Below, piece after piece: positions 38,842-61,572 of a stretch of DNA of 64,000 nucleotides. Positions within the stretch are counted from its first letter, which is position 1, and every line of letters starts with the position of its first letter. The DNA lies in contig JASJCF010000005.1 in assembly GCA_030066265.1 (NCBI GenBank), positions 414-64,413 on the forward strand. Direction: 5' to 3'. The notes below the pieces were generated by a model. That model had not been told where the DNA came from and did no database searches. It saw only the letters and a program-made list of their open reading frames with translations. The translations under genes were made by a program, and so were the position numbers. Origin of the DNA: Acidimicrobiia bacterium (GTDB lineage Bacteria; Actinomycetota; Acidimicrobiia; Spongiisociales; UBA5794).

Positions 38842-39630
38842 ATGGAAACGGCGCTGCTCATCCTCGGAATCCTGATCGCAGGCTTCATCTTCGGGTCGAT
38901 CGCACGGTTCCTCGTGCCCGGCCACCAGCCGTTCTCCCTCGCCGAGACGACGATCATCGGCATGGTCGGCGCCGCCATCGGAGCGATCGCCGTGAACGCC
39001 ATCTTCGGGACTCAAGACGTCGACCGCCTCGATCTCGGGAGCATCGTCGGAGGCATCGTCGGATCAGTGATCGTGCTCATCGTGGCCACCGTGGTGGTCG
39101 AGCGCTTCGGGTGGCGAGATCGCCAGGACAGCGTTGAGCCCAGCATCGCCGACGTGATCGAGGGGGGCGAATCGACGGACGTCGAGTTCAAGTCGACGTC
39201 GCGGTGGAATCTGCACACCGGGTCGAAGGACGACCGGATGGAGCTGGCCGTGACGAAGACGGTGGCTGGCTTCCTGAACTCCGACGGCGGAACGCTCATC
39301 GTCGGTGTCGACGACGACGGCCGTCCGGTCGGCCTCGAACACGATCTCTCGCTGATGAAGGCACCCGACCACGACCGGTACGAACTCTGGCTCACCGACC
39401 ATCTGCAGAAGACGCTCGGGAAGCCTGCGATGACGTTCGTGTCGATCCGCTTCGAGCCGTACCTCCAATCGACCGTGGTGGTCATCGCCGTGTCTCCATC
39501 GGACCGGCCGGTGTTCGTGAACGAGCCCAAGGGCAACCGGACTGCCGACTTCTACGTGCGTATGGGAAACTCGACGCGCAAACTCCTGACGGACGAGTTC
39601 GCCGACTACCAGGCATCGAGGTGGAGATGA
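38842..39630 (+). CDS. GlsB/YeaQ/YmgE-type membrane domain fused to an AlbA_2 (Schlafen-like) putative nucleic-acid-binding domain
   Basis: The N-terminal ~85 aa (LLILGILIAGFIFGSIARFLVPG...IIGMVGAAIGA...GSIVGGIVGSVIVLIV) resembles YeaQ. The C-terminus has GESTDVEFKST...VAGFLNSDGGTLIVGVDDDG (AlbA_2 signature). Confidence 0.75.
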   Translation: METALLILGILIAGFIFGSIARFLVPGHQPFSLAETTIIGMVGAAIGAIAVNAIFGTQDVDRLDLGSIVGGIVGSVIVLIVATVVVERFGWRDRQDSVEPSIADVIEGGESTDVEFKSTSRWNLHTGSKDDRMELAVTKTVAGFLNSDGGTLIVGVDDDGRPVGLEHDLSLMKAPDHDRYELWLTDHLQKTLGKPAMTFVSIRFEPYLQSTVVVIAVSPSDRPVFVNEPKGNRTADFYVRMGNSTRKLLTDEFADYQASRWR

Positions 39631-46457: not shown

Positions 46458-48022
46458 GGAAGCTCATCACGGCCGAGGCGGTGGTCACCGGGGCGGGCCA
46501 CCGCGGCACGGCCGTGCTGGTCGACCGGGGAAAGATCCTTGCCGTCGGGCAGCGAGAGGACCTCGAGCAACCCGGCCTCGAGCACGTGGCGCATCGGGAC
46601 GGATTCCTCTACCCGGGGTTTCGAGATGCGCACCTCCATGCGGTCCCCTACGCGTCGCTCCTGGCGGGCTGTTCGCTGAAGCGAGCGACATCCATCGACG
46701 ATCTCGTTGCTCGGCTGGAGTCTCATGCCGAGCGGCTGCCACCCGGCAAGCCCGTCGTGGCCACTCGCATGGATGACGAGCACCTCGCAGAGCGCCGCCT
46801 CCCGACCCGATGGGACCTCGATCGTGCGGTGCCGGATCGCCCTGCCGTCATCTACCGGTATTGCGGCCACGTGGCCGTGGCGAACAGCGAGGCGCTGGCA
46901 GCGTCAGGCATCAACAGCACCACCCCGGACCCTGAGGGTGGCACCATCGACCGCGACGCCTCTGGACATCCGAATGGAATCCTGCGCGAGACGGCCGCCG
47001 GAATGATCGCTCCTGCGCTCGCCCGTGGCAGCGACCTCGACCCAGCGACGCTCATCGCCGGTCTCGAGCGTCTTGCGAGCCTCGGCATCACCTCGGTCGG
47101 CGCCATGATGGGATACGGCGAGCAACCATCGGAGAAGCTCGAGGCGGAGGTCGAGGTCTGGCGGGCCGCAGCTCCGGACCTTCCCATCAACGTCGCAGGC
47201 ATCACGATCACCGACGATCCCGCTCTCTTGAGGCATGCTGCCGATCGACTCACCGGGGCAAGTCCCCGCCTCCGATGGCTCGGGGTCAAGCGGTTCGCCG
47301 ACGGGAGCTTGGGTGGGCACACCGCCGCCATGAGCGCACCGTTCGCCGACGTCGAGACCGCAGGCACCTATCGGCTCACCGAAGCGGACGCCGCCGTGGC
47401 GAAGAACGCCCTCGAACTCGACGGCATGGTCTGCATCCACGCCATCGGTGATGGCGCCGTCGAAGGTGTCCTCGACCTGTTCTCCGAGCTGATTGCGACC
47501 GGCGCCGACCCGAAGCGGCTTCGCATGGAGCACGCATCGGTGATCCGGCCAGACCAGGTGCGCCGGTTTGCAGATCTCGGTGCAACCGCCTGCGTACAGC
47601 CCGCCTTCCTCGCCTCGGAGGCGGACTGGGTCGCAGATCGAGTCGGACCCGAGCGGGCACCGTGGCTGTATCCGTTTCGGTCCATGCTCGAGGCCGGAAT
47701 CCCTCTGGCCGGATCGTCAGACTGCCCGGTCGAGCCTCCCCATCCCCTGTGGGGCATGGCCGCCGCTGTCGACCGATGCGGCATCTCGCCTTCGGAGGCA
47801 CTCACGGCGCATCAGGCAGTCGACATGTTCACGACGGGCGCCGCAGCGGCCATCGACGAGCCAACCCCCCTCGACACCGGAACGTCGGCAGATCTGGTGG
47901 TGCTGGACCGGGATGTGTCCGAGGCGACGCCGGAGGAGATCCGCAACGCCACCGTTCTCGCCACCTACGTCGCAGGCGAGCCCGTGGCGTGGGACCCTTC
48001 CCCACCGGCATGGATCGATTGA
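46454..48022 (+). CDS. Amidohydrolase-3 (YtcJ-like) metal-dependent hydrolase
   Basis: The GTG start overlaps the IMPase stop (GTGA). YPGFRDAHLH...VCIHAIGDGA...GSDCPVEP. Confidence 0.85.
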   Translation: MRKLITAEAVVTGAGHRGTAVLVDRGKILAVGQREDLEQPGLEHVAHRDGFLYPGFRDAHLHAVPYASLLAGCSLKRATSIDDLVARLESHAERLPPGKPVVATRMDDEHLAERRLPTRWDLDRAVPDRPAVIYRYCGHVAVANSEALAASGINSTTPDPEGGTIDRDASGHPNGILRETAAGMIAPALARGSDLDPATLIAGLERLASLGITSVGAMMGYGEQPSEKLEAEVEVWRAAAPDLPINVAGITITDDPALLRHAADRLTGASPRLRWLGVKRFADGSLGGHTAAMSAPFADVETAGTYRLTEADAAVAKNALELDGMVCIHAIGDGAVEGVLDLFSELIATGADPKRLRMEHASVIRPDQVRRFADLGATACVQPAFLASEADWVADRVGPERAPWLYPFRSMLEAGIPLAGSSDCPVEPPHPLWGMAAAVDRCGISPSEALTAHQAVDMFTTGAAAAIDEPTPLDTGTSADLVVLDRDVSEATPEEIRNATVLATYVAGEPVAWDPSPPAWID

Positions 48023-48088
48023 GGCGTCGATCGCGGCGTTGGTCGATCGCGGCGTTGATCGATCGCGATGTTGATCGAACGAGACCGT
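48023..48088. repeat. Decaying 16-nt tandem repeat rich in CGATCG
   Basis: ggcgtcgatcgcggcgtt / ggtcgatcgcggcgtt / gatcgatcgcgatgtt / gatcgaacgagaccgt, directly after the stop codon. Confidence 0.8.
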
Positions 48089-48143
48089 CCATCGAGACCT
48101 GGAACAACGGAAGCGTGAATCAGCGGGAGGACTCGGCGTCGGA

Positions 48144-48332
48144 TCAGGCAGGTCGCCCGGACCAACAGCCGGTGCAGTACGCGCCCCATTCGCCGTAGCG
48201 CGGGTCGTGGGTGAGCGCCTCGCCACAGGAGGTGCAACGGGACCGCACGAAGTCGTCGGCGACGCGCACGTGGGGGCCGTCCGAGGAAAGCAGTTCGGAC
48301 ACCAGGATCGCGTTGGATCGGCCATTCACCAT
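48144..48332 (-). CDS. Small zinc-ribbon-like hypothetical protein (62 aa)
   Basis: MVNGRSNAILVSELLSSDGPHVRVADDFVRSRCTSCGE...YCTGCWSGRPA. High GC3 and two CxxC pairs. It lies 40 nt downstream of the SelW-like gene. The SD is weak. Confidence 0.45.
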   Translation of the reverse strand: MVNGRSNAILVSELLSSDGPHVRVADDFVRSRCTSCGEALTHDPRYGEWGAYCTGCWSGRPA

Positions 48333-48372
48333 CGCCGGAAGGTACCGCCGTACCCGGCCTAGATGCCGGCGC

Positions 48373-48645
48373 TCAGCCTTCTTGGCTCTCCGGGACCGGC
48401 CCCACGATGGCGTCGATCGATGCGATGACCTCTTCGATGGTTGCGTGGCGGCCCAGCTCCTTCTTGGAGAACACGAGCTGGTCGCCCACTTCGACCTCGA
48501 AGACGCCTCCACGGCCGGGGATCACCGTGACGGACTCGATGTAGTGCTCGAACTTGTCGAGGATTGCCTGAACCATGCTCACGGCACGGTCGGTATAGCC
48601 TCAAGCCGCGCAGTATTCGAGGGATAGCTTCTTCATGCGCAGCAT
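48373..48645 (-). CDS. SelW/Rdx-family redox protein with in-frame TGA (probable selenocysteine) in a CxxU motif
   Basis: Track ORF 48373..48582 lacks the redox motif. Reading upstream in the same frame gives MLRMKKLSLEYCAA-TGA(48603..48601)-GYTDRAVSMVQAILDKF...IPGRGGVFEVEV.G.LVFSKKE.G. This matches the Rdx pattern IEYCxx[C/U]. SD GAGGA lies 8 nt before ATG 48645. Confidence 0.65.
48571..48591 (-). promoter_or_regulatory. Candidate bacterial SECIS hairpin
   Basis: On the mRNA: UGA-ggcuauacc-GACCGUG-ccgugag-CAUGGUU. A 7-bp stem (two G-U pairs) and a 7-nt loop containing GU. The loop begins about 17 nt after the UGA. Confidence 0.4.
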
Positions 48646-48750
48646 GCTACCGATCCTCGGAGACCTCGCTCCGCACCACTGTCTTGATGGGCCTCATCGG
48701 GCTCGACGCTATCGACGCCTACGAACGCAGACGGGCGGACGTCGGGCAGG

Positions 48751-49098
48751 TCAGGCCGCCCTGAACACCATCCCGTAGTAGCTGTCGTACGGCTCCCTTC
48801 GCACGACATCCACTTCGCCGACGACGGCCATCCCGATCTCCGGCTCGTCGATTTCGAGTTGACCGAGCATCCGCATCCCGTTCTCGAGCTCCACGATGCC
48901 GATCCCGAGCGTGGCGACCTCGTATTGCGCGGGAAGGTTGTGGACTCGCGTCCAGGTGACGAGTGAGCCGGTCCTCGGAAGCGGCACGGTGTCGAACTCG
49001 AAGAAGTCGTTCTGCTTGCACTCCTTGCAGACCATGCGGAACGGGTAGTGGGACGCCCCACACCGCCGGCACACGTATGCGTAGATGTTGCGATCCAT
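48751..49098 (-). CDS. DUF35 Zn-ribbon/OB-fold protein
   Basis: MDRNIYAYVCRRCGASHYPFRMVCKECK... followed by an OB-fold region. The start shares one nucleotide with the stop of the thiolase-like gene (TGATG). Confidence 0.85.
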   Translation of the reverse strand: MDRNIYAYVCRRCGASHYPFRMVCKECKQNDFFEFDTVPLPRTGSLVTWTRVHNLPAQYEVATLGIGIVELENGMRMLGQLEIDEPEIGMAVVGEVDVVRREPYDSYYGMVFRAA

Positions 49099-50273
49099 CA
49101 CGACTCCCTCACGAAGGTGCAGCACACCACGTTGTTCCCGAATCCGCCGAAGTTGCAGGTGAACCCGACCCGAGCACCTTCCACCTGTCGGGTCCCGCCG
49201 TCACCACGCAGCTGCGTGACGATCTCCCAGGCTTGGGCAACACCGGTCGCTCCCACAGGGTGGCCTCGGCCCTTCAACCCGCCGCCCACGTTGATCGGGA
49301 TGGTCCCCCCAAGGGCGGTCTCACCCTTCTCGAGCGCCAGGTGCCCCTCGCCCCTCGGGAAGAACCCGACCTCTTCGCTCTCGACGATCTCGAGGATGGT
49401 GAAGGCGTCATGGAGCTCTGCAACGTCAACGTCCTGTGGCGTGATGCCTGCCATGGCGAAGGCATCGTTCGCCGCCTTGCGCACGGCGAGCAGATCGGTG
49501 GGTTCGTCGCGCTCGAACACGGCGTGTGTGTCGGTGGCCTGCCCGATGCCGCTGATGCGGACGAGGGGACGGCCCAGCTCACGAGCCTTCTCCTCCGACA
49601 CGAGCACGAGGGCTGCTCCGCCGTCGGAAACCGGGCATGCGTCGAAGAACCGCAGCGGTTCGGCCACGTAGGGGTTGTTCGTCATCGCCTCGGGCGAATC
49701 CAGGATTCCCTCGATGGTGATGGGTTGTTGCAGGTGCGCCCACTCATTTGCGAGCGCAGCGTTCTGGTTCTTCACCGACACCATCGCCAGATGCCGCTCG
49801 GTGACGCCGTATCGCTCCATGTACAACCGCGTGAACATGGCTGCGTGCGCCGGCAGCGTCACCCCGTAGATGTACTCAGCAAGGGGATGGGTGAGGGTCG
49901 CGACGAAGTCGGTGGCCTCGAGGTTGTTGACCTCGCGCATCCGTTCGGCGCCCGCGACGAGCACGACGTCGTCCATGCCGGAGGCCACCGCTTGGAATCC
50001 CGCCTTGATGGCTGCAGCTCCCGATGCCGGACCGTTCTCGATCGCAGCGGCACCGGCCGGCATGAGGCTCAGGCTGTCGACCACGGCGCTGGCGAGCGCA
50101 GTCTGGTGGTTCACTCGCGGCGAGCCCATGTTGGCCACGTAGACCTGGTCGACCTCGGTCACCCCGGCATCTCGAAGGGCCATCATCGATGCGTACGAAG
50201 CGATCTCGACCAGGGGATACTCGAGCCTCGTGAACGTGGTGATGCCGATTCCGGCCACATAGACGTCACGCAT
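49098..50273 (-). CDS. Thiolase-fold (SCP-x/Ltp-type) protein lacking the N-terminal nucleophile Cys
   Basis: MRDVYVAGIGITTF...IENGPASGAAAIKAG...VLVAGAERM...GGGLKGRGHPVGATG...TCNFGGFG. Pro occupies the usual (C)ASG Cys position. SD ggaggggagg precedes the start. Confidence 0.85.
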   Translation of the reverse strand: MRDVYVAGIGITTFTRLEYPLVEIASYASMMALRDAGVTEVDQVYVANMGSPRVNHQTALASAVVDSLSLMPAGAAAIENGPASGAAAIKAGFQAVASGMDDVVLVAGAERMREVNNLEATDFVATLTHPLAEYIYGVTLPAHAAMFTRLYMERYGVTERHLAMVSVKNQNAALANEWAHLQQPITIEGILDSPEAMTNNPYVAEPLRFFDACPVSDGGAALVLVSEEKARELGRPLVRISGIGQATDTHAVFERDEPTDLLAVRKAANDAFAMAGITPQDVDVAELHDAFTILEIVESEEVGFFPRGEGHLALEKGETALGGTIPINVGGGLKGRGHPVGATGVAQAWEIVTQLRGDGGTRQVEGARVGFTCNFGGFGNNVVCCTFVRES

Positions 50274-51024
50274 CGGCCGACCTCCCCTCCATCTCCCAAC
50301 GTTGAGCCATGAGCGATGTCCCCGTCGGGTCGTACATCGATCGCGTCGCCGCAAGCGGATCCAACGGCGGTGTCGGCGGATCCGATGGCGGCAGGATCGC
50401 GTCCATTGCCTTGTCCAGCAGGTCCGCGGGCACGGGGCGACGGCCGACGACGAGCGTGGCGCGAGCAGCGTCGAACAGCTCCCGGGTGAGTGCCCACGAT
50501 GGCACACCGCCGAGCTCGTGGGGAGTGTCGAAGCGCTTCTCGAGCCGATACTCGATCATCCAACGCCGGAACCCGATCGGCGATTCGGCGACGATGAGGA
50601 CCTCATCGTGTCCGAGCGTGTCGATGTGGTACTCCATCTTGGCCGCAAACGCATGGGCACCGACACGCAGGCCCCGACGCAGCGCCAGCGTGTGGAGTGA
50701 CATCCCGAGGTCCGGGGTGACCTGCCTACCGTTGACGATGGCCGCCAGCTCGCCGTCGATCTGGACGGCGAGCACGTACTGGTCCTGATAGCGGTGGCGA
50801 TAGTGCGCCAGCAGCTCGGAGTAGACGCGGGCGGCCACCACGTCGTAGTAGTCGCGCTCGACATGGAGCAAGGGCTCCACGTGTCTCAGCAGGTCCGGGA
50901 TCTCATCACGATCGACCTGCCTCACCACCGCCGCTTCGCCGCTGGCGAGCATCATGTACTTGGGCTCGTACGGCTTCATCGGGGTGTCGACCGGCCGCAG
51001 GATCTTCTCTAGGTCGACGGACAT
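50266..51024 (-). CDS. Hypothetical protein (252 aa), operon member
   Basis: ATG 51024 with SD aaggagaagg. Its end overlaps the thiolase-like start by 8 nt. No family recognised. Confidence 0.6.
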   Translation of the reverse strand: MSVDLEKILRPVDTPMKPYEPKYMMLASGEAAVVRQVDRDEIPDLLRHVEPLLHVERDYYDVVAARVYSELLAHYRHRYQDQYVLAVQIDGELAAIVNGRQVTPDLGMSLHTLALRRGLRVGAHAFAAKMEYHIDTLGHDEVLIVAESPIGFRRWMIEYRLEKRFDTPHELGGVPSWALTRELFDAARATLVVGRRPVPADLLDKAMDAILPPSDPPTPPLDPLAATRSMYDPTGTSLMAQRWEMEGRSADA

Positions 51025-51049
51025 CGGGCTCCTTCTCCTTCGGTGGTCA

Positions 51050-53431
51050 TCAGGTCGGCGACGCGGAAACTGCCTGCGCAACCTTCTCCTGGGTGATCGG
51101 CATGGACGTGATGCGGACGCCGAGCGCATCGAAGACGGCGTTGGCGATCGCCGGAGCGGCGCCGATCATCGTGTGTTCCCCCACGCCTCTGGCGCCGAAC
51201 GGGCCATCCGGCTGGGGAACTTCGATGATGATGGGGATCATCTCGTCGGGGATGTCGAACGCCGTGGGGATCTTGTAGTCGGTGAAGTTCGGGTTCAGCA
51301 GCCGGCCGTCTTCGTCGAAGCGCATGTCCTCGTACAGCACGGTCGCCAGCCCCTGTACGAGACCGCCGGTGATCTGCCCTCTCACGAGGTCCGGGTTGAT
51401 CGCCTTCCCGGCGTCGACGGCGAGCGCCGCCTTGCGCACGAAGATGCGTCCGGTGTGCGTGTCGATCTCGATCACCATGCCGCATGCGCCAACCGTGTAG
51501 TGCACGTTGGGATGGCCGCCCTGACCGGTCTCCGGATCGCTGTTCGCGTTGGTGAACTCGGGCATGAACTTCCCACTGGCGACGATCGGGCCGCCGCGCC
51601 ACGTGCCGTCCTCGGTTTGGATCCCGTCGATCACGAAGTCCCGCAGGGGCTTGGCGAAGTCGGGGTCGGTGGTGCACTTCACCTGCTCGTCGGCCAGATA
51701 CAACGTGTCGTCCTCGTAGCCGTACACCTGGTGGATGACGTCGAAGATCTTCTCGCGCGCCTCCACCGCGGCCCTCTCGACCGCCAGGCCCGAGCTCCAG
51801 GTGACATGCGACGCCACGGTCTGCCACTCGTACGGATTGCGGTCGGTGTCCGGCGTCTCCACGCGGACCTTCTCGACAGGGAGACCGAGCACCTCGGCGG
51901 CGATCTGCGCCATCACGGTGAGGTATCCCTGCCCGAGCTCCATGCCCGAGACGCTGACGTTGACGCTGCCATCCTCGTTGAACTTCAAGAACGATGCCGA
52001 TGAGGCATTCGGCGGCATGGCGGGCGCCTTCCAGAACAGCGCGATGCCCTTTCCGATCACGGTGTTCGGATCGTCGGATTGCTCCTCCACGCCCCAGTCG
52101 ATCGCCGACGCCGTCTCATCGATGGCGGGGAGCAGACCGGACGGATTCATGTGGGCGCCGTAGGACAGCTCGTCGCCCTCGACGATGGCGTTCTTCCGCC
52201 GGAAGTCGACCGGATCCATGCCGATCGCCGCGGCGACCCGATCCAGGTGCGATTCGAGACCGAAATGGAACTCCGAATAGCCAAATCCCCGATAGGGGCC
52301 GCCAGGCGGCAGGTTGGTGTACACGCACAACGAGTCGTTGCGGATGTTCGGCACCCGGTACGGCCCGGTGGCTGAGAGACCCGCTGCATTGACCACGTTG
52401 GCGCCGTACTCGACGTAGGCACCGGCGTCCCAATAGAGCGTGTGCTCGACGGCGGTGATGGTGCCGTCGTTCATCACGCCCACCTTGAGTTCGGCAACCA
52501 CACCCTGGCGCTGGTAGGTGTTGTAGAACTCCTGCTCCCGGGTGAAGCGAAGCTTGACGGGATGCCCCTTCACCGCTGTCGCCATCGCCGCACCGATGAC
52601 CTCCATGGTCACCCCTGCCTTGCCGCCGAAGCCACCGCCCACATAGGGGGTGATCACGCGCACGTCCTTGTGGCTGAAGCCCAGCGGAGCGAGCGCCTCG
52701 GCGAAGAGGTGGCGCTGGGTGTGCGGCGATTGCGATGCCGTCCACACGGTCAGCCGGCCTGCGTGATCGAGCTTGCCGACGGTGACGTGCGGCTCGATGG
52801 CGCAGTGGGCGTACCGCGGAACCCGGTAGGTGTCGGCCAGCACGTAGTCGGCTTCGGCGAAGGCGCGCTCGGTGTCGCCCTTGCGGATCTTGCGCCAGTG
52901 AGCGATGTTCGTGCCGGCCTTGGGGAAGAACCAGGGCACATGGCTGTATTCGCCGAGATCCGGATGGATCAGTGGAGCTCCGTCGGCCACTGCCTCCTTC
53001 GGGTCGAGGAGCGCCTCGAGGACCTCGTACTCGACCTCGACCAGCTTGGCGGCCTGCACTGCCTGGCGATGGGTCCTGGCGATGACGCCTGCGACCTGCT
53101 CACCGACGAAGCGGACATGGCCCTGGGCGAAGATGTACCGGTCCCCCATGTACATACCGAAGTTGTACGGGAAGTCCTGGCCGGTGACGACCTTGACGAC
53201 ACCGGGAGCGTCCTCGGCTTTCGAGGTGTCGATGGAGACGATGCGTGCGTAGGCGTGAGGGCTCTCGACGACCGCACCGTGGAGCAGGCCCGGACCGAAG
53301 TCGAGGTCGTCGACGAACTGGGCGGCGCCACTGATCTTGTCGATCCCATCGATGCGCACGGCGGACGTTCCCACGGCATTGAGCTCGCCGTTGCGTTCGG
53401 CCTCCGCCTCGAACGGGTGGGTGGTCGTCAT
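51050..53431 (-). CDS. Molybdopterin-binding large subunit of a xanthine-dehydrogenase-family hydroxylase
   Basis: VGTSAVRIDGIDKISGAAQFVDDL...GGGFGGK... in 793 aa. ATGA overlap with the 2Fe-2S subunit gene. No CODH-type AYRCSFR motif was seen. Confidence 0.9.
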   Translation of the reverse strand: MTTTHPFEAEAERNGELNAVGTSAVRIDGIDKISGAAQFVDDLDFGPGLLHGAVVESPHAYARIVSIDTSKAEDAPGVVKVVTGQDFPYNFGMYMGDRYIFAQGHVRFVGEQVAGVIARTHRQAVQAAKLVEVEYEVLEALLDPKEAVADGAPLIHPDLGEYSHVPWFFPKAGTNIAHWRKIRKGDTERAFAEADYVLADTYRVPRYAHCAIEPHVTVGKLDHAGRLTVWTASQSPHTQRHLFAEALAPLGFSHKDVRVITPYVGGGFGGKAGVTMEVIGAAMATAVKGHPVKLRFTREQEFYNTYQRQGVVAELKVGVMNDGTITAVEHTLYWDAGAYVEYGANVVNAAGLSATGPYRVPNIRNDSLCVYTNLPPGGPYRGFGYSEFHFGLESHLDRVAAAIGMDPVDFRRKNAIVEGDELSYGAHMNPSGLLPAIDETASAIDWGVEEQSDDPNTVIGKGIALFWKAPAMPPNASSASFLKFNEDGSVNVSVSGMELGQGYLTVMAQIAAEVLGLPVEKVRVETPDTDRNPYEWQTVASHVTWSSGLAVERAAVEAREKIFDVIHQVYGYEDDTLYLADEQVKCTTDPDFAKPLRDFVIDGIQTEDGTWRGGPIVASGKFMPEFTNANSDPETGQGGHPNVHYTVGACGMVIEIDTHTGRIFVRKAALAVDAGKAINPDLVRGQITGGLVQGLATVLYEDMRFDEDGRLLNPNFTDYKIPTAFDIPDEMIPIIIEVPQPDGPFGARGVGEHTMIGAAPAIANAVFDALGVRITSMPITQEKVAQAVSASPT

Positions 53432-53898
53432 GGCGTCACCTCGCCGGAGCGCTGTCCCACCGCCAGCACGGCATCGATGATGGGCTCGTATCCCGTGCAG
53501 CGGCACAGGTTCCCGGACAGGGCTTCCTGGACATCGTGGCGGTCCGGGTTCGGGTTCTCGTCGAGGAGCTCCGTGGCGGACAGCACGATGCCCGGGGCAC
53601 AGAATCCACATTGGAAGGAGTTCAGGGTGATGAAGAGCTCCTGCAGGTCGCTCAGCCGGTCAGCACCGATTCCCTCGACCGTCGTGACTTCGTGGCCCTC
53701 GACCTCCACGGCCAAGACGAGACAGCTCCGCACGGTGCGTCTGTCGAGCAACACGGTGCATGAGCCGCAATCGCCCCGTTCGCAACCGATCTTCGGGCTC
53801 TTGACACCGATCTGCTCGCGAAGGACGTCGAGCAGGACATCTGCCGGCGCCACATCGAGATCCCACGACTCGCCGTTGACGGTGATCGTCACCTGCAT
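53428..53898 (-). CDS. [2Fe-2S]-binding small subunit of the Mo hydroxylase
   Basis: GCERGDCGSCTVLLD...FQCGFCAPG...NLCRCTGY. Confidence 0.9.
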   Translation of the reverse strand: MQVTITVNGESWDLDVAPADVLLDVLREQIGVKSPKIGCERGDCGSCTVLLDRRTVRSCLVLAVEVEGHEVTTVEGIGADRLSDLQELFITLNSFQCGFCAPGIVLSATELLDENPNPDRHDVQEALSGNLCRCTGYEPIIDAVLAVGQRSGEVTP

Positions 53899-53909
53899 CG
53901 TTCCTCCCT

Positions 53910-54794
53910 TCAGATCAGTCGAGTTCGATACTCGGGCCCGTCACCGTTCCTCCGCTGATCGGCTGCCACCAGCCCACGGGCGAGCATGACCTCGCACATG
54001 TGGGCCCGGTACTCCGCTGTCGCCCGCAAGTCGTTGATGGGACTGATCTCGCTCCGAACCATGGCCACTGCCTCGGCGATCACGTCTTCGGTGGGCGCTC
54101 TGCCCCGGATGGCGTCCTCGACTGCGTGGGCACGAACGGGGGTGGGCGCCACGGCACCGAAGGCGATCCGGTAGTCGTGGGCGTCGTCGACGACGATGGC
54201 GACCGCCGCCTGGGCGAGGTCCTCGCCTCCGTATCGCATGAGCTTGACGTAGCACCCCCCGTGTGTGGGCAGCTCCATGGTGAGGTGCGTGACGATCTCG
54301 TCCTCTCGCCTCGCCGTCTGTCGGAGGCCGACGAACCACGCTTCGATCGGCACCGAGCGGAACCCCTCGGGTCCCACGAGATGCACGTGCGCGTCGTAGG
54401 CCAACAGCACGGGACCGGCGTCGCACGAGGGCACAGCCGAGCAGATGTTGCCGACCACCGTCGCTCGATTGCGGATGCCGGGGGAAGCAACCGTCTCCGC
54501 CGCCTCGGACAGGAGCGGCGCATGCTCTGCGACGACGGACGACTCCATCAGGTCCGTGAATGTCACGAGGGATCCGACCGTCATCGTCCGGTCCGCAACA
54601 GCGAGGTCGCGAAGGCCGTCGATCGCCTTGATGTCGACAACGAGATCAGGGTGCACGGCATCGTCCCTCAGCCAAGCAACCAGGTCCGTCCCCCCAGCGA
54701 GCACCTGAGCGGAGCCGGAACAGTCCGCCAGGGCCCGGGTTGCCTCTTCGAGCGTGTTCGGCCTCACGTACTCGAAGTCGTGCGGGATCACCAC
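53910..54794 (-). CDS. FAD-binding medium subunit of the Mo hydroxylase
   Basis: FEYVRPNTLEEA...VLAGGTDLV... (CoxM/XdhB-like). GTG start with SD GAGGAGG. Confidence 0.85.
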   Translation of the reverse strand: MVIPHDFEYVRPNTLEEATRALADCSGSAQVLAGGTDLVAWLRDDAVHPDLVVDIKAIDGLRDLAVADRTMTVGSLVTFTDLMESSVVAEHAPLLSEAAETVASPGIRNRATVVGNICSAVPSCDAGPVLLAYDAHVHLVGPEGFRSVPIEAWFVGLRQTARREDEIVTHLTMELPTHGGCYVKLMRYGGEDLAQAAVAIVVDDAHDYRIAFGAVAPTPVRAHAVEDAIRGRAPTEDVIAEAVAMVRSEISPINDLRATAEYRAHMCEVMLARGLVAADQRRNGDGPEYRTRLI

Positions 54795-54887
54795 GGTGCC
54801 CTCCTCTCAGACCACCCAACAGGGGACCACCCAACAGTACGTGACCGGCCACCCGACGGCGATGACATCCGGGTATCGGCCATGCCG

Positions 54888-56294
54888 CTACCGCACCGCC
54901 TCGGCGAGCGCCTCGATGCCATCGACGAACACCTCCATCGGCGCCTCGACCAGACCGGCACCGACCATGCCGGTGCCCGGGATCCGCCCGGCGATCCCCG
55001 TGTTGATCTGAGGCTGAATGCCCGTGCGTACCACGAGGCCGGCATCGATGCCGACAGGGGTGCCGCGGAACTCGAGCATCGGGATCTGATAGGCCGGGTG
55101 CTCGGCCAGCGTGATCTCGTACATCTGCAGGGTTCGCCGCACGGCACCCGTGGCGGTCCCGCCGACGAAGCCCACGATGGCTGGCGCAGCAGCCATGGCG
55201 AAACCCCCGAGGCCGACGGTCTCGGTGATGGTGGAATCACCGATGTCGGGGCTTGCGTCATCGGCGCTGAATCCTCCGAGATAAAGGCCTTCGACACGTG
55301 GTGCCGGCGCGGTGAACCAGCGGTTGCCGGTTCCCGAGAGGCGGATCCCGAACTCCGTGCCGTTGCGCGCCATGACGGTGACGAGGCTCGAGGCGTCGAC
55401 ACCGGAGGCGGCGTCGGAGCCGAGCTTGCCGGCCGCCATGACGAGATTCAGCATGAAGTGATCGTTGCCATCGATGAAGTCGAATACCGCCCTTCGCTGG
55501 TCCGAGGGGGAATCGACGCCGTCGATCAGCGCCGATCCGATCTGGCGCAGGAAGAGGGAGGTGACGGCGCGGTTCCGGTTGTGTCCGTCGTCGCCCATCT
55601 GCAACGCTTGGGCGATCAGGGATTGGAGATCCACCGGTCCGCGGGTGCGCAGGACCGCGCCGAGCACCGGTCCCAGCACCGAGTCCATCCAACGCAGACG
55701 ATCGATGACCTCTGGGGCGAACGCGCCGTACCGCAGTACCTTGCCGAGCCCTTCGTTGAGGGTGGAGTACGCGACACCGTCGCCTGCATCGTCGTGGACG
55801 ACCGCAACCGGCATCGATGGCGAGATGACCCCGGCCATCGGGCCGACCGCGCTGTGGTGATGGCATGGCGAGAGTTCGATGTCACCGCGCGCCGCCAACG
55901 TCTCGGCTTGCTCCGGGCTCTCGGCAAGACCCTCGTAGAGCATGGCACCGATCAGCGCGCCCCGGAGCGGGCCACTCGCGTCGGCCCACTCCACCGGCGG
56001 CCCGGCATGCAGGAACGTTCGCTCGGCCATATCCGGCAGACACTCGCCTGCGGTGCCGATATCGACGAGCATCGGGCGAACGCCGAGCATGCGATCCACC
56101 GCGAGGCGGTTCGCTGCGAATGTCTTCCCGGCTGCCGCAAGAGTGGGGAGCGACGCCGCCGAGCCCGACACCGGCGGTCTCCAGTCGACGCGATACACCG
56201 TGGCACCCTGTTCCTCGACAGCAGCTGCGAGCAGGTCGGCCCCGGCTGCCACCACCGTGGGTTCGGAGTCGAGCAAACGGTCGAGCGATGTCAT
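54888..56294 (-). CDS. DUF1116 protein (E. coli YlbE/AllG-like)
   Basis: ...FLHAGPP...LSPCHHHSAVGPMAGVISPSMPV...NEGLGKVLRYG... . The start shares one nucleotide with the fdrA-like stop. Confidence 0.8.
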   Translation of the reverse strand: MTSLDRLLDSEPTVVAAGADLLAAAVEEQGATVYRVDWRPPVSGSAASLPTLAAAGKTFAANRLAVDRMLGVRPMLVDIGTAGECLPDMAERTFLHAGPPVEWADASGPLRGALIGAMLYEGLAESPEQAETLAARGDIELSPCHHHSAVGPMAGVISPSMPVAVVHDDAGDGVAYSTLNEGLGKVLRYGAFAPEVIDRLRWMDSVLGPVLGAVLRTRGPVDLQSLIAQALQMGDDGHNRNRAVTSLFLRQIGSALIDGVDSPSDQRRAVFDFIDGNDHFMLNLVMAAGKLGSDAASGVDASSLVTVMARNGTEFGIRLSGTGNRWFTAPAPRVEGLYLGGFSADDASPDIGDSTITETVGLGGFAMAAAPAIVGFVGGTATGAVRRTLQMYEITLAEHPAYQIPMLEFRGTPVGIDAGLVVRTGIQPQINTGIAGRIPGTGMVGAGLVEAPMEVFVDGIEALAEAVR

Positions 56295-57721
56295 CAGCGT
56301 TCCTCCATTCGCGCAGCGAGCCCGGCGGCGTGGCGAGCTGCTGCCGCGTTCGACACGTAGACAGCCGCTCCGGCGCTGTTGAGCGTCGCCGCCTGCCGTG
56401 CGAGCCCCTGGGGGTCACCCTTCGTCCCACACAGGGAGGCGATGACGGCGACGCCCGCATCGACGACCTGCTCGATCGCGGGCGCCAACTCGCCAGCCGG
56501 ATCGGGATTGGCACCGTGCCCCAGCACCACATCCAGAAGAGCGATTCCCACGGTCTCGTCACGTGCGGCTTCCGCCAGACGATCGAGGCGCACCGTCTGG
56601 TCGATCATGGGATGGGCGCGGCCTCTGGTGTAGCGGTCGTCCCCGTAGTCGACGAAGACGTGTCCCGACGACCCTTCGCTCGTGCCCACGGTTGCGCCGA
56701 GGGCGCGTTCCACGACGAACCGGGCATCGTCGCGCAAGGTTCCGCCCGAGAACAGGCCGCGAATGGTGCCCGGTCGACGATCGGACCGGGACGCGGGCCA
56801 CGCCGAATACGCTCGGGGCTCGCGGCCCAGCACTGCCAGAACCTCACCGGACCCGTCCTCGAGCGTCGTGTCGCCCATGAAGACGACGACCACCGGCGTG
56901 TCGCAGGCAGCTGCGGCGTCCCGCACCTCGGCGGCAACCGCCTCTGCCGGAGGTTTGGAGATCACCACGATCACGTCCGTTGCCGGATCCGCATCGAGGG
57001 CATGCATTGCTTGTTTCGTCGAACGTCCCCCGACCTCGCCGGAGAGATCCCGGCTCCCCGTGCCGATGGCATGACGGACACCGACACCGGCGTCGTCGAG
57101 GAGGCAGCACAACTGCTGGATGCCCGTGCCGGACGCACCAACCATGCTGACGGGGCCCGGCAGCACCGCATTCGCAAAGCCGAGGCCCACGCCGTTGATG
57201 ATCGTCGTGCCACAGTCGGGCCCCATGACGAGCAACCCGCGTTGGGCAGCTCTCTTCTTGAGCGCCATCTCATGCTCGATGGAGACGTTGTCGCTGAAGA
57301 CCATCACGTGCAGGCCGAGTTCCAAGGCCTCAGCGGCCTCTGCGTAGGCATGCTCGCCTGGCATCGAGATCAAGGCGACGTCGGCATCCCGAGCGGCATG
57401 ACCGATGGTCCTGGGGTCCGGAGCGTCCCAGCCACCCTCGGGAGACGGGCGCGCTACGAGCGCCTGTGCCAGGACCTCGCGTGCGACCTCGAGCGCAGCC
57501 TCGTCCTCGGCTCGGATCGCAACCAGGAGATCGTCGGCGCCCCAGTCGTCCGCTTCGGCGGTGTCGAACCCCATGTCGGCCAGGAGATCGAGATTCAGCT
57601 CGGTTGCCATGGCGACCAGTGCGGCGTGAACGCCTGCGACGTCGCCGACGGCCCGGCTGGCCTGCATCAATCGCACGGAGTCGTGGTAGCGGCCCCGATG
57701 TATCTGGATGCTGCTGATCAT
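56294..57721 (-). CDS. FdrA-like (succinyl-CoA-synthetase-alpha-like) protein
   Basis: IHRGRYHDSVRLMQ...LISMPGEHA...VMVFSDNV...GPDCGTTIING...GASGTG. ATGA overlap with the DUF2877 gene. Confidence 0.8.
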   Translation of the reverse strand: MISSIQIHRGRYHDSVRLMQASRAVGDVAGVHAALVAMATELNLDLLADMGFDTAEADDWGADDLLVAIRAEDEAALEVAREVLAQALVARPSPEGGWDAPDPRTIGHAARDADVALISMPGEHAYAEAAEALELGLHVMVFSDNVSIEHEMALKKRAAQRGLLVMGPDCGTTIINGVGLGFANAVLPGPVSMVGASGTGIQQLCCLLDDAGVGVRHAIGTGSRDLSGEVGGRSTKQAMHALDADPATDVIVVISKPPAEAVAAEVRDAAAACDTPVVVVFMGDTTLEDGSGEVLAVLGREPRAYSAWPASRSDRRPGTIRGLFSGGTLRDDARFVVERALGATVGTSEGSSGHVFVDYGDDRYTRGRAHPMIDQTVRLDRLAEAARDETVGIALLDVVLGHGANPDPAGELAPAIEQVVDAGVAVIASLCGTKGDPQGLARQAATLNSAGAAVYVSNAAAARHAAGLAARMEER

Positions 57722-58629
57722 CGGTGCACTCCTCCTGTGCGGCGGGAGACACGCTCGACGACGGTGCGGAGGCCGAGCACCATGCCTGCTGCCAACGCAG
57801 GCCCGGAGGAATGCCCGATGTCGGTCACCGAGCGGTGCGTCGCTTCCACATCGCCGCGTCCGCACACGGCGCGCAGGAACGCTCCCGCTGGTGCGGCGAC
57901 TTCGCCGCGAACGGCATGCCCGAGCAGCGAGGCCGACAGTGAAGTCGTCCTACGCGAGGCGATCGCACTGAGCGGCGCTGCGATCGAACCGAGGAGCGGT
58001 GCGGCCTCCAGGTCGCCGGTGGCGGGGCCGACGATCCGCACCGATGCCAGCATGCCTGCCACGTAGTCGTCGGCTTCGGGTGTGAGGCCGCTGCCTCGTC
58101 CGAGGATGCGATCCGCCGCCGCCACGACCGCATCAGCTCGCCCGGCCTCGATGGCCGAGGCGACCTCACAGCCAGTGACGCCCTCGATGGAATCCGGGAG
58201 AGCCTCGATGCGCTCGGCGACCTCGGCGGCGGCTGGCGTACCCACGCTCGGCGATGGATCCCACCATCGGGTCACAGCGACCGGCATCCGGGCATCGAGC
58301 GTGCCCTGACCCACCGTCACCAACGAGCCTGGAGGCAGCAACACACCCACCTCGGTTCGCAACCTCGGCGGGATGATCTCGATGCCATTGGGAAGCCGGG
58401 GACCGCCCCTGTCGGTGATCACCATGACGCCGTCTGACGTCTCCACCCATGCCGTGTGGCCGGAGCCGCCGAGAACGCATCCCTCTCGCTTCGACCCGGT
58501 GATGATCGCACGGATCCCGAGGCTGGCGACAGCGCGGATCGCCGACCGTGGAGGCCGCATTGTTGTGCCGACCCCGGGCGCGGTCACGAAATCAGCCCAG
58601 ATCGACGATCGCAGCGACGGGACCACCAC
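57718..58629 (-). CDS. DUF2877 protein (E. coli YlbF/AllH-like)
   Basis: ...[19 protein letters not shown]...[12 protein letters not shown]. The start is either GTG 58629 (overlapping the upstream gene by 38 nt) or ATG 58560. Confidence 0.7.
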
Positions 58630-59689
58630 CGGAGGGACCTTGATGCAGAGCCGCTACCGACACGAAGACGGCGGGATCGTCGACAGCCGCGGCGATGACG
58701 CCGCCGACAGCGCCCTTGATGTGGCGATGATGATGCACGTCCGAATCGTCGAGGGACACCTGCCTGCGTCCCCGCAAACGCGACGTGGGATCCGCTTCGC
58801 ACTTCGCAAACACGTTGACCAGCTTCCCATCGAGGTCCTCTGCGCGTGCGCGCTCGGGGAGCTCGAGGCCTGCCGAACGAATTGCCCGGTACACACCCTC
58901 GAAGTCGAGAGCATCGTGCATGACATCGTGACCGATGCGGTACCTCCCCCCGGCTCCGCGCACGTTGCCCACGACGACCGTCTGAGCCCGGTCGAGTTCG
59001 ACACCCGACGAACACGATGCCACCGACGAGTAGAGGCTCAGGTCGTGTCCGATCTGATCGGCGCCCGGCATGGGTATCTCGCCGAGCGCGACGGCGATAC
59101 CCAACGCAGAGGTGCCGTTGGACACGTTCATCGATTCGAGCGGGTCCTCGGTGTACACGGTGTGGCCGCGAGCCTTGGCGTCGTTGATCGTCTCCATCAC
59201 GAGCAGCGGCGTCTTCGTCTGGACGTAGTGCACGTCGGCAGGGTCGTCGATGCCTGCCTCGGCCATGGCACGCTGCACACCTCCGGCCACCTTTTCCACC
59301 ATGGCGGGACGGCCGATGTCTTCGGGGAGGATCACATCGCTCATGGCGTAGCCGACGGCCAGACGGGGATCGTCACCAGCGGGCGCGACATCATCGACAC
59401 GAGCGAAGACCGTGGCGTGTGGGCACAGGATGCCGTCGGTTCCCCCCGACCACACCATCGGGATCTCCGCGACCTCGGCCTCCGAGCGAGTTCCCCGCGC
59501 CATGAGGACCTCGCGGAACGCCTGATCGGCCAGGATCCGCGTGAAATCGTTGACACCGCCATTGCCTTCGGTCTTGCCCACCACGGCGATCACGCCATCG
59601 GCGTCGAAGACCCCTTCGTCGATCGCCTCGGACAAGCCCGAAGCGTCGCTCACACTCTCGAGCACGACCTTCCGTACCTCGATGGCCAT
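58592..59689 (-). CDS. Ring-opening amidohydrolase of the barbiturase / cyanuric acid amidohydrolase (AtzD/TrzD) family
   Basis: [49 protein letters not shown] and [14 protein letters not shown], i.e. the repeated Ser/Lys-containing motifs of this family. ATG 59689 with SD gggagatg. Confidence 0.85.
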
Positions 59690-59904
59690 CAACATCTCCC
59701 TTGCATCACTGGCCCCTGCACCGGATCCGAACCACCGAACCTCGCCAGTGAGCAACGGTGGCCACCTCCAAACCTACGCGAAGGCACCGGGATCGGAGGG
59801 CCTCGAGTCTCGAGATCGCAAGGGCTCGCGAAATGAGCATCGAGTCTCGCGCGCCGAGTTGACGCGTCGCCGCCCAATCGGGGACGCACCTCCAGGTGAC
59901 ACCG

Positions 59905-61572
59905 TCAGTCGAGCACGGCGCCGGACTCGGCGGAGCCGACCAACTTCGCATACTTCGCGAGGGCGCCCGTCGTGTACCGGGGCTCGACCGGAGCCAGATG
60001 GGCAAGCCGATCTTCCATGACATCGACATCCACCAGGACGTCCAACGTGCGGTTCGGGATGTCGACCCGGATGGTGTCCCCGTCCTCGACCAGCCCGATC
60101 GGGCCACCGTGGGCGGCCTCGGGGGCGACGTGACCGATGCACAAGCCCGTGGTCCCGCCGGAGAAGCGGCCATCGGTGATGAGCAGGACGTCCTTACCGA
60201 GTCCGGCACCCTTGATCGCGGCTGTGATGGCGAGCATCTCGCGCATGCCGGGGCCGCCCTTGGGGCCCTCGTAGCGGATCACGACGACATCGCCCGGGTG
60301 CAGGTCATGCCCCCAGAGCGCCTCGAGTGCGTGCTGCTCATCGTCGAAGACGCGCGCTCGCCCTTCGAATACGTCGAACTCGACGCCCGCAGTCTTGACG
60401 ACGGCACCGCCAGGGGCCAGAGACCCGCGAAGGATCGCAATCCCGCCCTGGTCCGCCAGCGGATGATCGATCGATGCAACGACATCCTGATCGTGCGGTG
60501 TGCTCACGTCGGTCAGGTTCTCGGCCATCGTGCGGCCGGTCACCGTCGGCACGTCACCGTGGATCAATCCGGCGTTCAACAGCTCGCGCAACACCACCGG
60601 AACTCCGCCGATCCGATCCAGATCGACCATGTGGTACCGACCGAACGGCTTCATGTCTCCGATGTGAGGCGTCCGACGCGAGATGCGATCGAAGTCCTCG
60701 AGCGTGAGATCCACACCTGCTTCATGGGCGATCGCCAGCAGATGGAGGACGGCGTTGGTCGAGCCCCCCAACGCCATGACCACGGTGATCGCATTCTCGA
60801 ACGCCTGCCGAGTCATGATGTCTCTCGGCCTGACACCTGACTCGAGCAGCCGGACCGCTGCAGCGCCCGAGGCACGCGCATAGTCGTCCAAACGGGCATC
60901 GACCGCCGGGACCGACGCCGATCCCGGGAGAGACATCCCGATCGCCTCGCCCACCGAGGCCATCGTGTTGGCCGTGAACATGCCTGCGCATGATCCAGCG
61001 CCTGGGCAGGCATTCTGCTCGAGCTCCAAGAGGCGATCGTCGCTGATGCGGCCCTCCGAATGGGCGCCGATGCCTTCGAACACATCGACGATGGAGATGT
61101 CGACGCCGTCGACCGTGCCAGGCAAGCTCGACCCCCCGTAGAGGAACACCGACGGGAGATTGTGACGCGCTGCTGCCATCAGCATCCCCGGGAGCGACTT
61201 GTCGCAGCCGGCGATCGACACCATCGCGTCAAACCGCTCGGCATGCATCACGAGCTCGACGGAATCAGCGATCGTCTCTCGCGAGACGAGCGACGCACGC
61301 ATCCCCTCGTGTCCCATGGAGATGCCGTCCGACACGGCGATGGTTGCGAACTCGAGACCGACGGCCCCGGCCTCGCGGACGCCCACCTTGGCGAAGCCGG
61401 CGAGCTTGGGGCCGGTCACGTTGCACGGCGTGACTTCGTTTCCTGCCGACACGACGCCGACCTGGGGCTTGTCGAAGTCGTCCTCGCCGAGGCCGACGGC
61501 CCGCAGCATGGCGCGCGCCCCCGCCCGAGAGGGACCGATCGTGACGTCCTGGGAGTGGATCTTGTTGGCCAT
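59905..61572 (-). CDS. ilvD: Dihydroxy-acid dehydratase
   Basis: ...[12 protein letters not shown]...[10 protein letters not shown]...TDGRFSGGT... in 555 aa. Confidence 0.95.

Follow-up and report, generated by a model that had tools for sequence, protein, structure and literature searches.

In the oxidative route of pyrimidine breakdown described for Rhodococcus erythropolis, the ring is oxidized at C6 and then opened hydrolytically by barbiturase. To our knowledge barbiturase is the only enzyme of this pathway with a firmly assigned gene, and we know of no sequences for uracil/thymine dehydrogenase or ureidomalonase; the uracil-thymine dehydrogenase purified from Rhodococcus is reportedly heteromeric, with Mo, FAD and Fe-S cofactors and subunits of about 91, 36 and 20 kDa. 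Ureidomalonate, the product of ring opening, is split in Rhodococcus by a hydrolytic ureidomalonase that gives urea and malonate (PMC3758960). A second way of releasing a ureido group is provided by AllFGH of the anaerobic allantoin pathway of Escherichia coli, established experimentally in 2024 as an oxamic transcarbamylase that interconverts oxalurate plus phosphate and carbamoyl phosphate plus oxamate, and Kim and Kim pointed out for E. coli that a route of this type frees ureido nitrogen without urease (PMC11326118). E. coli also carries an uncharacterized paralog of allFGHK, the yahEFG-yahI-yahJ cluster, and a 2025 survey of nitrifier genomes discusses allFGHK beside biuret genes, not beside barbiturase. 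Here we analyze ten minus-strand genes, G1 to G10, at positions 48751-59689 of a 64,000-nucleotide stretch of DNA from an uncultured Acidimicrobiia bacterium (contig JASJCF010000005.1, GC content of the stretch 65%), referred to throughout as the window. They encode a predicted barbiturase (G1), a trio resembling AllH, AllF and AllG (G2-G4), a three-subunit molybdenum (Mo) hydroxylase (G5-G7), and an orphan protein followed by a thiolase-fold protein and a DUF35 protein (G8-G10).

We propose that the ten genes form one catabolic operon for oxidative (barbiturate) pyrimidine breakdown with a carbamoyl-phosphate-forming step, a reading to which sequence evidence leads us to assign a probability of roughly 0.55. 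The scheme follows the Rhodococcus pathway as far as ureidomalonate and from there on the AllFGH(K) step of E. coli, and we have not found the combination described. In the full-text literature searched, with most subscription papers outside reach, there was no relevant description of a barbiturase/AllFGH/Mo hydroxylase operon, of malonamate, of ureidomalonase genes or of yahEFG function, in line with the first-pass annotation of this DNA, which knew of no described operon of this composition.

In the proposed pathway the Mo/FAD/2Fe-2S hydroxylase formed by G5-G7 would oxidize uracil and/or thymine at C6 to (5-methyl)barbiturate, and G1, for which orthology makes a strong case, is predicted to hydrolyze the ring to ureidomalonate (N-carbamoyl-malonamate). 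Analogy with AllFGH and the linkage of the genes then suggest that G2-G4 convert ureidomalonate and phosphate into carbamoyl phosphate and malonamate, with no hydrolysis to urea. Carbamoyl phosphate could yield ATP, NH3 and CO2 through carbamate kinase, whose gene lies in sister-clade operons and not in the window, or could enter arginine or pyrimidine synthesis; with either fate urease would not be needed and energy would be conserved. More speculatively, a G8-G10 complex may handle the three-carbon (malonyl/malonamate) fragment by CoA-type chemistry. The most specific version of this scheme joins three proposals, that the AllFGH branch represented by G2-G4 is a ureidomalonate phosphorylase/malonamate transcarbamylase, that G5-G7 are a second, non-orthologous set of uracil/thymine dehydrogenase subunits, and that G8-G10 are a new CoA-linked complex; taken jointly these are tentative, and it is somewhat doubtful that all three hold.

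The ring-opening enzyme

G1 matches the family model PF09663 (Amido_AtzD_TrzD) with 475 bits over residues 4-363 and TIGR02714 with 504 bits (cut-off 153). In a comparison with all PDB sequences it scored 532 bits against Rhodococcus barbiturase (5hwe) and 242-307 bits against five cyanuric acid hydrolases (6bum, 5t13, 6dhj, 4bvq and 4nq3), a margin of about 225 bits in favor of barbiturase over every cyanuric acid hydrolase of known structure; its identity to the crystallized barbiturase is about 69%. Peat et al. (2013) defined a barbiturase signature of Asn194, His324, Lys328, Val348 and Ser or Ala at 349, positions at which AtzD has Arg, Thr, Arg, Gly and Gly (PMC3758960). In a gap-free alignment G1 has N191, H321, K325, V345 and A346 at these positions, the complete barbiturase signature. 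The family match, the greater closeness to characterized barbiturase than to characterized cyanuric acid hydrolases and the specificity signature together place G1 in the barbiturase group (group VI) of the AtzD/TrzD/Bar Toblerone-fold family, and the choice between barbiturase and cyanuric acid hydrolase that the first-pass annotation had put to phylogenetic placement falls to barbiturase. It is a strong inference that G1 is a barbiturase ortholog, predicted to open the barbiturate ring to ureidomalonate (3-oxo-3-ureidopropanoate).

The competing idea, a cyanuric acid hydrolase function for G1 in a cluster for s-triazine/cyanuric acid breakdown, is very improbable. It draws on the model NF052395, 'cyanuric acid amidohydrolase' (cut-off 360), on which G1 scores 458 bits, and on the sources that label many close homologs in this way. 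The label is uninformative for G1, since that model gives the crystallized Rhodococcus barbiturase 478 bits as well, and the cyanuric-acid reading was rejected on this ground. The residues and scores described above point the same way, and the operon holds no gene for biuret hydrolase, AtzE or allophanate hydrolase. What it shares with cyanuric acid catabolism by AtzD/TrzD with biuret and allophanate hydrolases is the PF09663 family and Toblerone fold of G1; the specificity residues and the partner genes are different. Barbiturase orthologs are systematically named cyanuric acid hydrolases, as are many of the JGI entries, and this mislabeling matters for surveys of triazine degradation potential.

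The barbiturase locus of Rhodococcus

The closest reference for the context of G1 is the barbiturase neighborhood of Rhodococcus qingshengii (L082 1-21251), an organism closely related to the strain used to work out the pathway; we found no published description of this neighborhood. It contains XdhC, two PucR regulators, two RutG/uracil-permease-like transporters, UPRT, a family III CoA-transferase, an AccD/AccA-type carboxyltransferase, an aminotransferase and a Mo hydroxylase of three subunits (840, 300 and 214 aa), and it reads like a complete oxidative pyrimidine regulon. The subunit make-up of this hydroxylase would fit the masses given for the purified uracil-thymine dehydrogenase. The pairing of a Mo hydroxylase with a barbiturase, on which the first-pass annotation had built its interpretation of the window, is therefore found at the reference locus too. 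A PRK07486-type amidase directly follows barbiturase there and no AllFGH genes lie within 10 kb, which fits the hydrolytic ureidomalonase described for Rhodococcus; the amidase is likely that ureidomalonase. The Mo trio is followed by a 223-aa uncharacterized protein and hydantoinase A.

The window thus resembles the Rhodococcus system in its barbiturase and in having a three-subunit Mo hydroxylase in the cluster. It differs in four respects: the AllH/F/G-like trio takes the place of the amidase after barbiturase, the Mo enzyme belongs to another lineage, the Rhodococcus cluster has permeases, UPRT, PucR, CoA-transferase and carboxyltransferase and lacks G8-G10, and the predicted nitrogen product is carbamoyl phosphate, not urea.

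The AllH/F/G-like trio and its linkage to carbamate kinase

The three genes after G1 belong to the families that make up AllFGH. G2 matches PF11392 (AllH) with 69 bits, and its C-terminal ~110 aa are 31% identical to E. coli AllH and 28% to YahE; G3 reaches 400.9 bits on the FdrA model NF004760 and is 39% identical to AllF and 38% to YahF, with PF27530 (HMA_AllF_N) carried by its orthologs; G4 matches PF06545 with 307 bits and is 45% identical to AllG and 43% to YahG. By these comparisons the trio is a third lineage with the yah gene order (H-F-G), not an AllFGH ortholog. An alignment of G3 with AllF, YahF and distant homologs shows that the invariant motifs MGPDCGT, G(A)SGTG, SKPP, GGT and HPMID are all kept. 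A possible phosphohistidine in G3 was considered and dropped: the His of 'GHGA' is not conserved, being Phe or Tyr in homologs, and lends no support to a mechanism like that of succinyl-CoA synthetase.

The gene neighborhoods of related barbiturases are informative about what the trio may do. In distant Acidimicrobiales loci the order is barbiturase, carbamate kinase, AllH, AllF, AllG and Mo hydroxylase. Carbamate kinase is present in the cluster in six AllF/AllG-bearing loci, in four of them between barbiturase and AllH/F/G (L068, L070, L079 and L081), once after a permease (L077) and once on the opposite strand beyond AllG (L075); in L067 and L078 it comes just after barbiturase. The sister-clade kinase is ~50% identical to a Nocardioides kinase and ~40% identical to E. 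coli AllK and YahI, and the Nocardioides protein scores 316 bits on the carbamate kinase model PRK12352 (cut-off 266) and 339 bits on arcC. This arrangement of barbiturase, kinase and trio resembles E. coli allFGHK and yahEFG-I.

The predicted substrate is also close to that of AllFGH. Oxalurate (H2N-CO-NH-CO-COO-) and ureidomalonate (H2N-CO-NH-CO-CH2-COO-) are the same N-acylurea, the latter with one methylene more. By analogy, the linkage of the trio to barbiturase and carbamate kinase points to phosphorolysis of ureidomalonate. We propose that the trio replaces ureidomalonase in this way because of the kinase linkage, the known AllFGH reaction, the homology of the two substrates, the motifs kept in G3 and the amidase that occupies the corresponding place in Rhodococcus. 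The first-pass annotation had left six of the ten genes without a role. For the trio this no longer applies, since no other partner of barbiturase is as conserved and carbamate kinase accompanies it in sister clades; for G8-G10 the statement stands.

Set against the two E. coli systems, the likeness to AllFGH and AllK lies in the three families of the trio, the AllF motifs of G3, a predicted substrate one carbon longer than oxalurate, and the carbamate kinase of the sister loci. The differences are an identity of 31-45%, the score of G3 under the FdrA cut-off, an order of H-F-G in place of F-G-H, and a context of barbiturase and Mo hydroxylase in place of allECD, with no carbamate kinase or allantoin genes in the window. 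With the yah cluster the trio shares its order of DUF2877, FdrA-like and DUF1116 genes, at 28%, 38% and 43% identity, and the linkage to an amidohydrolase and a carbamate kinase. YahJ is of the amidohydrolase superfamily and is not a Toblerone-fold barbiturase, and the yah cluster has neither a Mo hydroxylase nor G8-G10.

Nocardioides presents a further arrangement, in which the carbamate kinase gene ends 4 nt before barbiturase (L083 9061-11104, Nocardioides anomalus; L084 4240-6299) and the two are called as a fusion in one metagenome contig. Hydantoinase A/B, a deaminase and a family III CoA-transferase are encoded nearby.

Conservation of the ten-gene unit

A scan of one genome per species returned 460 relatives of G1, and the window proteins were mapped on the best 80 loci, with gene content read from tblastn mapping and from gene calls supplied with the collection. 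About 25 species-representative genomes show the full order G1-G10, with identities to the window proteins of 55-67% for G3, 67-80% for G4, 72-89% for G7, 73-94% for G8, 76-92% for G9 and 60-84% for G10. Clustering of the ten genes is far beyond chance. The flanks differ between loci: in L086 the ten genes sit between flagellar genes, unlike the IlvD and Rdx/Amidohydro_3 flanks of the window, and the unit is therefore bounded exactly by G1 and G10. Conservation of the neighborhood across genomes, one of the checks proposed with the first-pass annotation, is thus observed. An identical G8 is found on a contig of GCA_029979885.1, and its close homologs are proteins of Acidimicrobiia metagenome-assembled genomes (MAGs).

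Two blocks can be told apart within the unit. L049 and L052 have G5-G10 first and G1-G4 second, with each block intact, and in at least one lineage, represented by L085 (15322-21098) and L087 (1-6017), a 6-kb gene on the opposite strand for a 2041-aa alpha-2-macroglobulin-like protein separates G1-G4, together with a deaminase gene, from G5-G10, together with a uracil-permease-like gene. A class of loci with 'G1-G4 only' (L058 and others) was dropped, since in L085/L087 the alpha-2-macroglobulin gene pushes G5-G10 past the fetched flank. The association of barbiturase with the trio is wider than the ten-gene unit: AllF/AllG lie near barbiturase in 58 of the 62 loci whose flanks reach 4.5 kb or more, including loci of Haliangium (Myxococcota) and Egibacteraceae. 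One MAG (L006 10001-17565) has two barbiturase paralogs, 90% and 70% identical to G1 and separated by an opposite-strand PucR-like regulator, with AllH after the first copy and AllF/AllG after the second.

These rearrangements bear on whether G1-G4 and G5-G10 might be functionally unrelated modules that are adjacent through shared ancestry in this clade. In favor of this are the swapping and splitting of the blocks and the origin of every ten-gene locus in one related group of Acidimicrobiia. The blocks nevertheless remain neighbors where they have been rearranged, AllG is followed by one or other type of Mo hydroxylase in both clades and such an enzyme is encoded in the Rhodococcus barbiturase cluster too, and distant low-GC loci again cluster homologs of G3, G4, G5-G7 and G8 (with G9-G10 in L157 and L159). 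On balance we consider two unrelated modules improbable.

The molybdenum hydroxylase

G5-G7 contain all the canonical FAD, 2x[2Fe-2S] and Mo-cofactor domains of the xanthine dehydrogenase family. None of 13 NCBIfam models reaches its cut-off on these subunits (the best, XdhA, gives 517 bits against a cut-off of 780), and the nearest solved relative of G7 in the PDB is the alpha subunit of 4-hydroxybenzoyl-CoA reductase (325 bits). The model NF040766, 'CODH group 5', separates the two Mo lineages, giving 1401 bits for the Rhodococcus Mo subunit and 343 bits for G7. In the sister Acidimicrobiales loci a Rhodococcus-type Mo enzyme (56-59% identical) is encoded directly after AllG, in the slot that G5-G7 occupy in the window. 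Because two lineages fill one slot of otherwise orthologous operons, both Mo types likely do the same job, and the supply of barbiturate by both is the simplest explanation.

Other genes in related loci are of pyrimidine type. In both L087 and L088 the gene after G10 encodes a transporter whose best-scoring match is uracil permease, genes of the cytidine/cytosine-deaminase fold flank G1-G4 in ~10 loci, and PucR-type regulators lie divergently upstream in many. Orthologs of G7 at 67-69% identity occur in low-GC metagenome loci beside AllF/AllG homologs, some with a nucleobase permease. We infer that G5-G7 would oxidize uracil/thymine to barbiturate. The earlier suggestion of an oxidative pyrimidine or N-heterocycle operon is supported in silico by the grouping of G1, by the conserved neighborhood, by the pyrimidine-type genes of related loci and by the Mo hydroxylase of the Rhodococcus locus.

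G8-G10 and the wider G8 family

G8 matches no Pfam or NCBIfam model. Its family is small, with 196 representatives in a profile search of 1.84 billion proteins and 3049 proteins in 90% clusters, all unnamed. The AF2 model (pLDDT 71, pTM 0.72) has the GNAT order of elements, beta1-alpha1-alpha2-beta2-4-alpha3-beta5-alpha4, and nearly all of the top 50 Foldseek matches in the PDB are GNAT-type acyltransferases, at weak scores (E ~1e-4, TM 0.4-0.55). Ser109, His111 and Lys129 of G8 are kept throughout the family. G8 is absent from the carbamate-kinase-bearing barbiturase loci, from the Rhodococcus and Nocardioides loci and from the all and yah loci of E. coli.

The best PDB matches of G9 are archaeal-type thiolases (7yvy at 260 bits, 4yzo and 6esq). 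G9 reads IENGPASG where 7yvy and 6esq have AACASG, so that Pro replaces the nucleophilic cysteine, and ENGPASG is invariant in 37 G9 orthologs, including ones of 50-54% identity. A classical thiolase role, thiolysis or Claisen condensation via an acyl-enzyme, is excluded for G9 by the missing catalytic cysteine. G10, in which CxxC...CxxC is visible, starts in overlap with the G9 stop and is presumed to be the partner of G9. Overlapping start and stop codons at both the G8/G9 and the G9/G10 junction suggest a complex, and G8-G10, which are coupled in translation, probably form one. The archaeal-type thiolase fold followed by an overlapping DUF35 gene recalls the archaeal thiolase-HMGCS-DUF35 complex, PhlACB, the Ltp2-ChsH2 aldolase and BbsAB; G9 differs from these assemblies in the lack of the nucleophilic cysteine, and the third gene, the GNAT-like orphan G8, is not an HMG-CoA synthase or KAS III-type protein.

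Distant members of the G8 family (28-41% identical; G8') were used to scan metagenomes, which gave 80 loci (L090-L169) from diverse bacteria with a GC content of 27-74%; the 40 long ones were examined. A PF04199 'cyclase' of the kynurenine formamidase/isatin hydrolase family is encoded in 29 of these, AllF in 17, and AllG and a Mo hydroxylase in 15 each; several of these hydroxylases are 63-69% identical to G7. Neither barbiturase nor carbamate kinase was found in the 40 loci. The typical order is G8', AllH, AllF, AllG, cyclase, FAD, FeS and Mo subunits, with or without a nucleobase permease (e.g. L104 10001-19264 and L106 227-14363), and L157 and L159 carry orthologs of G8, G9 and G10 (56%, 53% and 38% identical). 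The PF04199 protein may be a non-homologous ring-opening enzyme in the place of barbiturase.

In three loci (L131 5347-11664, L119 and L134) the G8' and cyclase genes adjoin genes for an MmdA-like carboxyltransferase, a biotin carrier and the beta and gamma (OAD_gamma) subunits of a Na+-translocating decarboxylase. These decarboxylase genes, together with the CoA-transferase and carboxyltransferase of the Rhodococcus cluster, lead us to speculate that the G8 family acts on a malonyl-type fragment via CoA chemistry, G9/G10 then standing in, in soluble form, for the decarboxylase. For a G8-G10 complex, such chemistry might for example be an N-to-S transfer of the malonyl group and then a decarboxylation that needs no acyl-enzyme. 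In L131 AllH follows on the other strand, with no AllF/AllG beside it. Low-GC relatives (L106 7962-9053 and 7012-7347; L157 7212-8303) have lipoate-protein-ligase-like and small thioredoxin-like genes between the Mo hydroxylase and the G8-family genes, for which the proposed pathway has no place.

Alternative readings

Several observations weigh against a pyrimidine operon with a phosphorolytic step. G7 is 27% identical to the Mo subunit of the Rhodococcus barbiturase cluster and is not its ortholog, and its closest orthologs outside the clade (67-69%) lack a barbiturase nearby and have a PF04199 cyclase-family hydrolase. Because those orthologs sit without barbiturase, the Mo enzyme may have a substrate other than uracil. 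The trio stands no nearer to AllFGH than to the uncharacterized YahEFG, with G3 below the FdrA cut-off of 433 bits; two loci, L033 (7495-9949) and L050 (10001-12481), are without AllH between G1 and G3, as AllF begins 17-49 nt after barbiturase and leaves no room for it; and L040 (133-5841) has G1-G2 and then directly G5-G7, with no AllF/AllG between. In Nocardioides the carbamate kinase directly precedes barbiturase, yet there is no AllFGH within 10 kb. The 64-kb window holds no gene for a carbamate kinase, a permease or a regulator; nucleobase permease, deaminase and cyclase-family genes were also looked for there without a hit. One alternative reading is degradation of another N-heterocycle, either a 5-substituted or modified pyrimidine or a non-pyrimidine ring, with G5-G10 as a substrate-specific and possibly CoA-dependent front end that converges on a barbiturate-like intermediate. 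G5-G10 are a separable block (L049, L052 and L087), the nearest solved relative of the non-orthologous G7 acts on a CoA thioester, G7 orthologs occur with the cyclase-family hydrolase and no barbiturase, and in barbiturase loci G8-G10 accompany the G7 type and never the Rhodococcus type. This reading has to contend with G1, which keeps all the barbiturase specificity residues, with the Rhodococcus-type Mo enzyme found in the G5-G7 position of orthologous Bar-AllHFG operons, and with an associated transporter that scores best as a uracil permease, and we regard it as rather unlikely.

A different chemistry for the trio can also be considered, in which the AllH/F/G-like enzyme cleaves ureidomalonate with CoA or via an acyl-phosphate to malonyl-CoA or malonyl-phosphate and urea, and G8-G10 decarboxylate or use the malonyl thioester. 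The CoA_binding and CoA-ligase domains of G3 and the relationship of AllF to the alpha subunit of succinyl-CoA synthetase are in its favor, as are the GNAT-like, CoA-binding fold predicted for G8, the thiolase fold of G9 and the neighborhood of G8 paralogs and a Na+-pumping decarboxylase of (methyl)malonyl-CoA type. Carbamate kinase, lacking in the window, was also detected in none of the loci with a G8-family gene. Against these stand the one characterized member of the family, which makes carbamoyl phosphate in a reaction without CoA (PMC11326118), the full retention of the AllF catalytic motifs in G3, and the sister loci, which lack G8-G10 and embed carbamate kinase between barbiturase and the trio. 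CoA-dependent cleavage is in our view unlikely, and the phosphorolytic pyrimidine operon is the reading we prefer.

Significance

If the operon works as proposed, its genes and those of its relatives nominate candidates for the oxidation step of the pathway in two Mo lineages. The distribution of the trio suggests that many uncultured Actinomycetota and some Myxococcota may bypass hydrolytic ureidomalonase and recover the ureido group as carbamoyl phosphate, a source of ATP or a biosynthetic precursor for which no urease is needed. The AllFGH-type transcarbamylases, with one characterized member at present, would gain a second class of substrate, and the E. coli yahEFG genes would gain a lead. 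The orphan G8 family and the conserved pair of cysteine-less thiolase and DUF35 protein would become testable.

Organization of the locus and neighboring genes

The ten open reading frames are densely packed and were found at the coordinates of the first-pass annotation (Table 1). Its family assignments were all borne out in Pfam and NCBIfam profile searches, G8 having no match in either.

Table 1. Features of the ten-gene cluster and its upstream region (window coordinates)
Feature	Coordinates	Strand	Product or description	Basis or remark
G1	58592..59689	-	Barbiturase ortholog (predicted), 365 aa	PF09663, TIGR02714
G2	57718..58587	-	AllH/DUF2877-like subunit, 289 aa from GTG 58587	PF11392; alternative ATG 58560 = 280 aa
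G3	56294..57721	-	AllF/FdrA-like subunit, 475 aa	CoA_binding + Ligase_CoA domains; NF004760 best model
G4	54888..56294	-	AllG/DUF1116-like subunit, 468 aa	PF06545
G5	53910..54794	-	FAD subunit, xanthine-dehydrogenase-family Mo hydroxylase, 294 aa	PF00941 FAD_binding_5 + PF03450 CO_deh_flav_C
G6	53428..53898	-	2x[2Fe-2S] subunit, 156 aa	PF00111 Fer2 + PF01799 Fer2_2
G7	51050..53431	-	Mo-cofactor subunit, 793 aa, candidate uracil/thymine C6-hydroxylase	PF01315 Ald_Xan_dh_C + PF02738/PF20256 MoCoBD_1/2
G8	50266..51024	-	Orphan 252-aa protein, GNAT-like predicted fold	AF2 model, Foldseek
G9	49098..50273	-	Thiolase-fold protein without nucleophilic cysteine, 391 aa	PF00108 Thiolase_N + PF22691 Thiolase_C_1
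G10	48751..49098	-	DUF35 protein, 115 aa, zinc ribbon + OB fold	PF12172 zf-ChsH2 + PF01796 OB_ChsH2_C
ilvD-G1 intergenic region	59690..59904	-	215 nt, presumed promoter/operator	Position only

Adjacent genes overlap by ATGA at G2/G3 and G6/G7 and by TGATG at G3/G4 and G9/G10, and are separated by 93 nt at G4/G5, 11 nt at G5/G6 and 25 nt at G7/G8. The junctions are as first annotated except for G8/G9, which had been counted among the ATGA or TGATG overlaps and is an 8-nt overlap (ATGCGTGA). The start of G2 also needs revision. The first-pass annotation had offered GTG 58629 or ATG 58560; translation from GTG 58587, 4 nt past the G1 stop, reads VTAPGVGTT...AVASL, and the orthologs begin MTAPAV...AVASLA. 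Because its N-terminus matches these better, GTG 58587 is most likely the G2 start. Scans of positions 48000-60200 for promoters, terminators and Rfam elements returned no sigma-70-like site, terminator or Rfam element.

The cluster is flanked by ilvD upstream and by a small Rdx gene and a convergent Amidohydro_3 gene downstream, with pur genes further on. The Rdx-family (selenoprotein W-like) gene at 48373-48582 (-) lies 168 nt 3' of G10 on the same strand and is called in L001 too. Within the pur cluster, positions 32895-34328 (+) encode an amidase-signature protein that scores 461.7 bits on PRK07486 (cut-off 465); it is 38% identical to the barbiturase-adjacent Rhodococcus amidase, which scores 715 bits on that model, and is of the same subfamily. 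It may be a malonamidase or a ureidomalonase, or have nothing to do with the pathway. Directly after purM in the purine biosynthesis cluster, positions 38764-39630 (+) encode a 288-aa protein with Schlafen AlbA_2 and Transgly_assoc domains.

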